64,000 nt of DNA from NCBI RefSeq assembly GCF_053078305.1, contig NZ_CP166879.1, one strand, 5' to 3'. This document shows positions 52,811 to 54,723 of the stretch, in pieces (the stretch's first letter is position 1; every line of letters starts with the position of its first letter). Below the pieces are notes generated by a model. That model saw only the letters and a program-made list of their open reading frames with translations, made no database searches and was not told the origin of the DNA. A program made the position numbers and the translations under genes.

Positions 52811-53134
52811 ATGTCCCATCAGAAAATTATTCAGGATCTTATCGCATGGATTGACGAACATATTGACCAGCCGCTTAACATTGATGTCGTCGCAAAAAAA
52901 TCAGGCTATTCAAAGTGGTACTTGCAACGGATGTTCCGCACGGTGACGCATCAGACGCTTGGCGATTACATTCGCCAACGCCGCCTGTTACTGGCCGCCG
53001 TTGAGTTGCGCACCACCGAGCGTCCGATTTTTGATATCGCAATGGACCTGGGTTATGTCTCGCAGCAGACCTTCTCCCGCGTTTTCCGTCGGCAGTTTGA
53101 TCGCACTCCCAGCGATTATCGCCACCGCCTGTAG
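52811..53134 (+). CDS. soxS: AraC-family regulator SoxS
   Basis: 107 aa; MSHQKIIQDLIAWIDEHIDQPLNIDVVAKKSGYSKWYLQRMFR. Confidence 0.95.
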   Translation: MSHQKIIQDLIAWIDEHIDQPLNIDVVAKKSGYSKWYLQRMFRTVTHQTLGDYIRQRRLLLAAVELRTTERPIFDIAMDLGYVSQQTFSRVFRRQFDRTPSDYRHRL

Positions 53135-53136
53135 TT

Positions 53137-54723
53137 TTATTGCCCGCGCGTTAACTCCCGCGCGGGTAATTGCTCCATCCATTGCATAAACACCTGCGGC
53201 GGCATCGCCTTCGCAAAGAACCATCCCTGGCAATAGCGCACACCGCGTTTGCGCAGCCAGTTAACCTGCTCCTCAGTTTCGACGCCTTCAGCGATCGTTT
53301 TTAACCCCAGGCTGTGCGCCAGCTCGATGATATGTTCAGCAATCAAATGACTGGTTTTATGGGTGGTCAGCGTCTCAACAAACGATTTATCGATTTTCAA
53401 AATATCGACATTCAATGATTTAAGGTTATGCAAGTTAGAGTAGCCAATACCAAAATCATCAATTGCCACTTCGTAACCGGCCTGGCGGAAAGCCAGAATA
53501 ATCGGCGTCATTTTTTCGACATCAAGAAATGCATGCTCAGTCACTTCAAATTTAATTTGCTGCGGACGCACCGCGTATTGCTCTGTTTCCTGATTGGTTC
53601 GCGCTATCAACCGTGACGTATGAAAATCGGAGGCCGACAGGTTAATAGAAACATAGCGATCGGCATGTGTTGCCAGGTACGCGCCCAGATCGCGGAAGAC
53701 ATTATCAATAACATAATCAGTTACCTGTTCTATCATCCCCTCCTTTTCTGCCAGCGGAATAAACTCTGCCGGATTCATTACTTGCCCCTGTTCACCAGGC
53801 CAACGTAACAACGCTTCAGCGCCGATACATTTTTCTGTTTTGATATCAATTATTGGCTGGTAATAAAGGCAAAGCTGATGTTTTTCGAGGGCGCGTTGCA
53901 ATTTGCGTTTGGGAGACAAATAGTTTTGTCGAATACGTAGCCAGAGTAATAGCAGAACAAGACTCCCAAAAATACCGGCGGGTAACGCAAAAATAAGATG
54001 ATTATAAAAATGGGCTATAAGACGTTGATATGAAGTCGCAACAATGGCTGCAATTGGGCGTTTTGTCGAATAAACTGTCGCATATAAATAGCCATTTCTT
54101 TGTACGGTTAAATCCTTCAAATGAATCAGCGGAGAAAACGTTGCTGCCGAGGCCTCGTTGCTTAACGAGAAAAAGGTTTTCGTCACCGTATCATACACAC
54201 CCCATTGCAATGTCGGGTCATCAGACATCACTTCACTCCAGAAGAGAGGGTTGATAACCGCCACATAATTTCCCCGCTGCATATAGGTCATTTTATAGCC
54301 AGAGAAAAAAGGCGTATCGCGGTAATAATAGATAGAAACGTTAGGTTCACGCTTATAATCGGCCGGTGCAATCGTATAGCCGTTTACAGGCGCTATCAGT
54401 GATGAGCATAAAAAATGGTTATCACGGGCATAGATCAATTCATTAATATAAAGATAGCCACGAATAATATTCAACATTCGCTTTTGATGGGCTGGAGTGC
54501 AAACTTGCCCCTGATAGCGTTCAGCTGCATCGCTCACTAAATCTGCCTGGCGAATGACCAGCTCGGATTTATCCAACGCCAGTTGAGCAAAGGTTCGGAG
54601 CTGATTATTCACTTCTGATTTTGCCCAAAGGAAGGCAATCCATAGCGAAAGAATGATGGGAAAGAGAACTAAAAAGATAATGCCCGGCAACGCCAGTAAT
54701 TGGTGTCGTGCACGATGACTCAT
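53137..54723 (-). CDS. pdeC: c-di-GMP phosphodiesterase PdeC (YjcC; CSS periplasmic domain plus EAL)
   Basis: ATG at 54721-54723 ([10 protein letters not shown]); two TM segments; EAL-domain motifs ([14 protein letters not shown]); about 528 aa. Confidence 0.85.

Follow-up and report, generated by a model that had tools for sequence, protein, structure and literature searches.

In the 64,000-nucleotide (nt) stretch of contig NZ_CP166879.1 (assembly GCF_053078305.1) analysed here, called the window below, the genes soxS and pdeC (yjcC) converge with their stop codons 2 nt apart, and the last codons of pdeC encode a stable hairpin in the RNA of the opposite, soxS-sense strand. We read the junction as a compact tail-to-tail pair in which the hairpin is a 3′-end element of soxS lodged in the pdeC tail, the final end of transcription being assisted by Rho, and we put the probability of this reading at roughly 60%. 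Computed here are the coordinates and the hairpin itself, together with how it is conserved and covaries, which strand it favours, its persistence in lineages that lost pdeC and the composition of the RNA downstream. The features at the junction are the following.

52811–53134, plus strand: coding sequence of soxS, 107 amino acids, an AraC-family activator, with the stop TAG at 53132–53134; from the list of open reading frames (ORFs) and the RefSeq annotation of matching genomes.
53135–53136, no strand: the spacer TT between both stops, 2 nt, read from the sequence; the spacing in K-12 is identical.
53137–54723, minus strand: coding sequence of pdeC (yjcC), 528 amino acids plus the stop TAA (53137–53139); from the ORF list and the K-12 annotation length of 1587 nt.
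53139–53170, plus strand: hairpin in soxS-sense RNA, the proposed soxS 3′-end element (terminator and/or protective stem); from the fold, covariation, strand bias and retention after pdeC loss.
53140–53208, minus strand: C-terminal tail of PdeC behind the EAL domain, residues 506–528, which hosts the hairpin and differs in sequence between genera.

A 12-bp stem, AUUGCCCGCGCG-UUAACUCC-CGCGCGGGUAAU, begins 5 nt past the soxS stop. Its GC core, 53143–53150, pairs with 53159–53166 through 8 G-C pairs and encloses an 8-nt loop (53151–58). The fold has an energy of −21.6 kcal/mol (z −4.6), and none of 200 shuffles is equally stable. The hairpin is encoded in the last 11 codons of pdeC (518–528, …PARELTRGQ*) and the first base of its stop codon, within the 23 residues that follow the end of the EAL domain at residue 505. 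In the 5,422 Escherichia coli genomes that carry it the site occurs once per genome, and a repeated extragenic palindrome (REP) is thereby ruled out; REP-like palindromes replace the hairpin only in Pseudocitrobacter. A search of 53100–53200 against the Rfam 15 covariance models, with E values up to 1, gave no match, the only match being SraL at 52128–52268.

The strand on which the structure is selected can be read from its wobble pairs. Counted over 23 species, the soxS-sense strand of the stem has 40 G·U cells vs 3 A·C cells, which correspond to G·U on the pdeC-sense strand. Since G·U is tolerated only in the RNA of the strand that carries it, this bias indicates that the structure is selected in the soxS transcript and not in pdeC mRNA. 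Judged from the sequences, the hairpin is likewise not selected as a DNA palindrome. Folding energies average −20.0 kcal/mol for the plus strand vs −14.1 kcal/mol for the minus strand (Wilcoxon p = 5e-5, a significance inflated by the relatedness of the species), and the minus-strand fold is the weaker one in 21 of the 23, for instance −12.3 vs −19.2 kcal/mol in Citrobacter.

The hairpin also outlives its host gene. Escherichia sp. MOD1-EC7003 has lost pdeC except for about 28 last codons, which a deletion has fused to the marbox region (L003, 3325–3450). Only a C-terminal pdeC remnant is left in S. enterica subsp. arizonae (L006, 3325–3420), and pdeC is not detectable in Intestinirhabdus alba (L007, 3325–3360). 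All three independent lineages keep the hairpin at an unchanged distance (8 nt) from the soxS stop; the design of the junction thus needs no pdeC target.

Conservation was followed in a gap-free alignment of 23 sequences, one per species, from Escherichia, Salmonella, Citrobacter and Intestinirhabdus. RNAalifold returns a consensus stem of 9 bp, in which 86% of cells are paired vs 33–50% when the partners are slid. The covariation score of the stem is 0.295 vs 0.179 in shuffles, with 0 of 500 shuffles reaching 0.295, and compensatory changes occur at three stem pairs. One covarying pair couples position three of the last Gln codon, where changes are synonymous, to position one of a codon that may specify Leu, Ser, Pro or Thr, while in Citrobacter sp. 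Awk 4 a switch from C-G to U-A alters two amino acids jointly (Ala to Val and Arg/Ser to His). Codon choice is equally restricted: wherever Pro is present in the stem its codon is CCC (22 of the 23 sequences), and Gly is encoded by GGG in 19 of the 23. Both CCC and GGG are minor codons in E. coli.

Strong structure at this place extends beyond the aligned genera. In the 80 nt past the soxS stop at 81 loci, the hairpin has a mean energy of −20.3 kcal/mol vs −11.8 kcal/mol in 5,080 control windows. At 64 of the 81 it ranks in the top 5% for the locus concerned, and different genera use different hairpins. Other junction types form theirs from the poly-Gln stretch of pdeC (CAGCAGCAG) and Met-Pro-Pro codons. 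At Enterobacter/Lelliottia-type junctions (L029–L032, L037–L039, L047, L048, L051, L061, L068 and L070) this alternative hairpin has about −20 kcal/mol and spans roughly +16 to +70 counted from the soxS stop; on its sequence it looks like an independent solution of the same problem. Kluyvera and Pseudocitrobacter, which have other sequence after soxS, carry in this position either a REP-like palindrome or strong hairpins of another kind.

The letters of the junction, 53130–53142, are tgTAGttTTAttg, the pdeC stop TAA being the reverse complement of 53137–53139. SoxS matches HTH_18/HTH_AraC in Pfam; PdeC matches CSS-motif at residues 39–243 and EAL at residues 273–505, and its mechanical ORF begins 3 codons upstream of the annotated start, at TTG. 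Both identities agree with the RefSeq annotation of near-identical E. coli genomes and with Pfam. A 701-nt query around the junction matches 5,425 of 5,426 complete E. coli genomes, annotated soxR, soxS and pdeC, and 5,422 of the 5,426 share the 70-nt junction at 97% identity or more. In K-12 MG1655, pdeC occupies 4275471..4277057 and soxS 4277060..4277383; the gap is also 2 nt and the hairpin is identical, while the soxS stop is TAA instead of TAG. In the strain Res13-Sevr-PER07-33 a G to A change (L001, position 2944, equivalent to window position 53142) turns the last Gln codon of pdeC into a stop. Its PdeC has 527 amino acids, the gap is 5 nt, and the G·U pair at the base of the stem becomes A-U.

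The preliminary description of this stretch had placed the two stops at 53132–53134 and 53137–53139, 2 nt apart, and this is borne out by the sequence, the ORF list and the K-12 annotation; as K-12 is annotated with the same gap, the observation belongs to the reference annotation. It had added that no terminator lies between the genes, which is literally correct because 2 nt cannot hold one, but misleading in view of the conserved hairpin that follows so closely. Given the 2-nt spacer, any 3′ end of soxS falls inside pdeC and some antisense overlap is unavoidable. The ending of soxS transcripts before 53137, named there as the outcome that would speak against antisense transcription, is therefore physically impossible.

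Tight convergent junctions are common. Among 24 convergent pairs of coding sequences in three 50-kb pieces (150 kb) of the K-12 annotation, 5 have a gap of at most 2 nt or overlap and 7 have a gap of at most 10 nt. All 7 tight pairs (yadE-panD, zapC-ycbX, yccX-tusE, yhbQ-yhbS, yrbL-mtgA, sxy-yccS and argG-yhbX) are found in the published list of excludons. The 2-nt spacing of soxS and pdeC is thus ordinary for E. coli, though conserved, and with such pairs so frequent the spacing by itself implies no regulation. A scan with SoxS, which returned 80 Enterobacteriaceae species, placed the two stops, in 65 of the 80, between an overlap of 16 nt and a gap of 15 nt, so that the convergent layout is widespread and always tight. 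Klebsiella, Raoultella and Trabulsiella show the overlap of 16 nt; Enterobacter and Lelliottia have either an overlap of 4 nt or a gap of 5–7 nt, and Escherichia and Citrobacter the 2-nt gap. The pair has already been catalogued, in a class with many members, and as far as the evidence goes it reflects routine genome compaction.

The kind of 3′ end was considered by comparing the hairpin and its surroundings with known classes. A canonical intrinsic terminator has a GC-rich stem-loop shortly past the stop, which is present, and a U-tract of at least 5 in 8, which E. coli lacks: the immediate tail after the hairpin, UAAUUGCUCC, is a poor U-tract with 3 T in 8 by the window rule of the script and 4 in 8 counted directly from the GC core. 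The U content of the tail is 1–5 in 8 in Citrobacter and 5–6 in 8 in Salmonella, where this U-richer tail may allow the hairpin to act as an intrinsic terminator. Rho-dependent 3′ ends, as described in PMC6061677, carry a stable stem-loop without a U-tract, with rut just downstream, and the stem shields the RNA from polynucleotide phosphorylase (PNPase) and RNase II. The soxS junction has the stem-loop without a U-rich tail, and in base composition, the property by which this comparison is made, it also has the C-rich untranslated RNA downstream, in the following region.

53171–53330, plus strand: C-rich, G-poor untranslated RNA past the hairpin, antisense to pdeC, a candidate rut-like Rho-loading region; from base composition.

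In 78-nt windows over 53135–53330 the C/G ratio of the soxS-sense strand is 1.5–1.8.

From these data the following course of events is proposed. RNA polymerase leaving soxS would transcribe the hairpin at 53139–53170, where a minority of polymerases may pause or stop, because the U-tract is weak. The remaining polymerases would probably be released within the next few hundred nt by Rho acting on the C-rich untranslated antisense-pdeC RNA. Exonucleases working from 3′ to 5′ could afterwards shorten the RNA as far as the hairpin, and this structure would stabilise the soxS mRNA. We infer from this anatomy where soxS transcripts end, that Rho is involved and how large an effect on pdeC might be: each soxS transcript would overlap about 35–45 nt of the pdeC tail behind the EAL domain and not the EAL-coding region, and inducing soxS should not repress pdeC strongly. 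With no intergenic room, the 3′-end element of soxS would have been written into the dispensable C-terminal tail of pdeC. The preliminary description had deduced that soxS induction drives antisense transcription into the 3′ end of pdeC. Some overlap is indeed unavoidable and has been catalogued (PMC12288877), but the hairpin may confine it to this short stretch.

The catalogue in question is that of ExcludonFinder (Nucleic Acids Research (NAR) 2025, PMC12288877), in which pdeC-soxS is one of 165 convergent excludons of MG1655, called where transcripts overlap in at least 50% of 58 strand-specific MG1655 transcriptomes. A predicted terminator lies inside the transcription unit of the neighbour in 146 of the 165. 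The junction conforms on both counts, with overlapping transcripts (the 2-nt spacer here, the RNA-seq overlap from the literature) and a 3′-end element, the hairpin, inside the pdeC coding sequence. Literature searches on soxS 3′ ends and antisense RNA yielded nothing specific to the junction beyond ExcludonFinder, and a paper on RNase III in oxidative stress does not mention the pair. For the effect of soxS induction on pdeC no data were found, the iModulon supplements having no entry for pdeC, yjcC or b4061. The accessible part of the Adams 2021 Term-seq supplements does contain a strong RNA 3′ end at window position 52812 on the plus strand (K-12 4277382, minus strand), at the soxS start codon. 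As far as that part of the data goes, such an end implies an abundant RNA of about 40 nt that comprises the 5′ untranslated region (UTR) only and could arise from premature termination, processing or protection.

Several points weigh against a soxS 3′ end at the hairpin assisted by Rho. No mapped soxS 3′ end at the junction was found in the accessible portions of the Term-seq and SMRT-Cappable-seq supplements, which represent uninduced conditions: that of Adams 2021 has nothing at K-12 42770xx, its sole soxS entry being the one at the start codon, and that of Yan 2018 has no soxS/yjcC entry. The ExcludonFinder call is silent on which transcript extends, or how far (PMC12288877). A simple terminator scan of 52200–55200 called only the SraL/soxR terminator and three weak sites, a number about equal to that in shuffles, and passed over the junction hairpin, which we accordingly do not call a canonical intrinsic terminator. 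The scan was also silent on the hairpins of Salmonella and Intestinirhabdus, the Salmonella loop exceeding the 8-nt limit of the tool. The species used for covariation are related, so that the shuffle statistics overstate significance, and one member of the alignment itself supplied the structure. For two of the three lineages without pdeC, retention of the hairpin could reflect recent deletions that spared about 75–100 nt, Intestinirhabdus being the stronger case. Rho dependence is deduced from composition, and the antisense strands of genes are C-rich in general.

Oxidative stress and the phosphodiesterase, for which the preliminary description suggested a possible link, have been connected before, but the reported sign is opposite and the coupling acts at the promoter (PMC3720812). 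In K. pneumoniae CG43, yjcC is paraquat-inducible and its expression is lower in soxRS and rpoS mutants, and its clustering with soxRS was remarked upon (Huang 2013, PMC3720812). A plasmid-borne yjcC promoter-lacZ fusion in Klebsiella is also induced by paraquat (PMC3720812), which read-through from soxS cannot explain. The quantitative reverse-transcription PCR of yjcC used complementary DNA (cDNA) primed by random hexamers (PMC3720812) and hence was not strand-specific, so that antisense RNA from soxS read-through could contribute to the soxRS-dependent signal; the soxS and yjcC coding sequences of K. pneumoniae overlap by 16 nt (L059). These data suggest co-induction of the two genes rather than exclusion, with the limit that they do not separate the strands. 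E. coli PdeC is redox-controlled through its periplasmic CSS domain (Herbst 2018, PMC5897775), and a MarA site was reported for yjcB<>yjcC by chromatin immunoprecipitation sequencing (ChIP-seq) in enterotoxigenic E. coli (ETEC) H10407 (PMC5684230). The window contains a corresponding site.

54964–54978, plus strand: Mar/Sox/Rob-type box GCAATAAAAGTCACG between pdeC and yjcB, an exact match to the MarA ChIP-seq motif (PMC5684230).

The box precedes the pdeC start by about 240 bp and yjcB by about 175 bp, and as a candidate site it could place pdeC or yjcB under direct control of SoxS, MarA or Rob. The known stress coupling of the phosphodiesterase is thus located in the promoter region (the Mar/Sox box, the soxRS dependence in Klebsiella) and in the redox-sensitive CSS domain.

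Alternatively, induced soxS transcription could pass the hairpin far into pdeC, and collision of polymerases and/or cleavage by RNase III would lower PdeC and raise cyclic di-GMP (c-di-GMP), which would make the pair a functional excludon. Transcript overlap is unavoidable and catalogued from RNA-seq (PMC12288877), the soxS promoter is strongly inducible according to textbook knowledge, the tight junction is kept across Enterobacteriaceae, and the hairpin has no good U-tract in E. coli and Citrobacter, so that read-through is plausible; the Klebsiella yjcC mRNA result, obtained with random hexamers, could partly be such read-through (PMC3720812). Nevertheless, we consider this unlikely. A hairpin selected in the soxS sense and followed by rut-like RNA argues for an early 3′ end, and lineages without pdeC still have this hairpin. 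Closely spaced convergent pairs are frequent, and the paraquat induction of the Klebsiella promoter fusion has the opposite sign (PMC3720812). The accessible part of the supplements listing double-stranded RNA captured with p19 (the products of RNase III, uninduced conditions) has no soxS/yjcC/pdeC entry. Quite unlikely in our view is a version specific to superoxide stress, in which substantial soxS transcription would escape the weak hairpin, run antisense through pdeC, lower PdeC synthesis or give rise to truncated or non-stop pdeC mRNAs, and raise c-di-GMP. The missing spacer would then be a selected device, and the soxRS-dependent yjcC mRNA of Klebsiella partly an antisense artefact.

The hairpin might instead serve pdeC as a stabiliser of its mRNA 3′ end, or both genes as a bidirectional terminator. 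In E. coli its reverse complement does fold in pdeC-sense RNA (−18.9 kcal/mol, z −3.9), ending at the pdeC stop, and convergent pairs often share bidirectional terminators, for example can-hpt (PMC6131387). Against this stand the wobble pairs, 40 vs 3 in favour of the soxS sense, and the much lower minus-strand stability in most species. The tail on the minus strand, UAAAACUA, is A-rich with 2 U in 8. The distance from the hairpin to the soxS stop is moreover fixed, while the pdeC stop shifts, overlapping by 13 nt in S. diarizonae and standing 2 nt away elsewhere, or the gene is missing altogether. A role for pdeC is therefore very improbable, and a bidirectional intrinsic terminator was ruled out by this minus-strand tail together with the weaker minus-strand fold in 21 of the 23 species. 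We regard it as just as improbable that nothing here is functional, with genome compaction accounting for the spacing and the hairpin arising incidentally from the codons of the PdeC tail. About 20% of the sampled convergent pairs are equally tight or tighter, the terminator scan stayed near the level of shuffles and left the hairpin uncalled, and background windows occasionally reach similar energies. Covariation above both shuffled and slid controls and the bias toward the soxS-sense strand are not expected of a by-product, nor is the persistence of the hairpin without pdeC, and on these three grounds the coding by-product was rejected. In addition, fixed rare codons and coupled amino-acid changes maintain the pairing, and in 64 of 81 cases the junction hairpin belongs to the top 5% for its locus, made from different sequences in different genera.

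A 3′-end element of soxS in the pdeC tail, assisted by Rho, is thus the reading we prefer, and it bears on the use of this locus. Measurements of pdeC/yjcC under oxidative stress that lack strand specificity call for caution, and tags or deletions at the C-terminus of pdeC can disturb the 3′ end of soxS. The hairpin is a small case of selection on RNA structure over the choice of codons, and even of amino acids, in an overlapping gene. If it were true that soxS silences pdeC in cis, the superoxide response would be wired directly to biofilm and c-di-GMP with no extra regulator. Compared with the literature covered here, two minor points appear to be new: the tail of pdeC carries a hairpin that is strand-specific and covaries, and this hairpin survives where pdeC has been lost.

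The other flank of soxS carries the following gene.

52261–52725, minus strand: coding sequence of soxR, divergent from soxS and on the strand shared with pdeC; from the ORF list and annotation.

The Hfq-binding small RNA SraL/RyjA (Rfam RF01408, 153 bits; 52128–52268, plus strand) converges on soxR and overlaps it by 8 nt at the end of the coding sequence, 52261. The two share a canonical hairpin with a T-run at 52237–52267. With the SraL/soxR and pdeC/soxS overlaps, the soxRS locus has an overlapping convergent transcript on both flanks. On the minus strand of 52261–54723, the RNA past the pdeC stop is G-rich (C/G 0.6–1.0) and no terminator-like site precedes soxR. As neither a terminator-like site nor rut-like RNA follows pdeC, its read-through could be antisense to soxS and sense for soxR, and could cross soxS into soxR in a layout resembling a noncontiguous operon; ExcludonFinder does not list pdeC-soxR as such a layout (PMC12288877). 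At the convergent yjcB-ssb junction, 55379–55517, both strands give weak Rfam Phe_leader matches of 28.7 and 25.3 bits, below the gathering score of 55, which are probably a shared terminator hairpin.

The junction can be compared with four known systems. It resembles the overlapping-terminator excludons (PMC12288877) in its convergent genes, very short spacing, a terminator in the unit of the neighbour and constant transcript overlap, and is unlike them in that the soxS 3′ element is in the coding sequence of the neighbour and not in its 3′ UTR. The SraL (RyjA)/soxR pair likewise has a convergent transcript that overlaps the 3′ end of a sox gene, but its hairpin is canonical with a T-run and the partner is a small Hfq-binding RNA instead of a protein gene. 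The studies of Klebsiella yjcC and E. coli PdeC (PMC3720812, PMC5897775) already tie the phosphodiesterase to oxidative or redox stress, as the idea of a soxS/pdeC link does; they differ in reporting a positive coupling, exerted on the promoter or the protein rather than by antisense RNA. The Rho-dependent ends of Dar and Sorek 2018 (PMC6061677) agree with soxS in the stable stem-loop without a U-run and the C-rich sequence directly downstream, while soxS, assigned from its sequence, departs from them in the U-richer tail of Salmonella.

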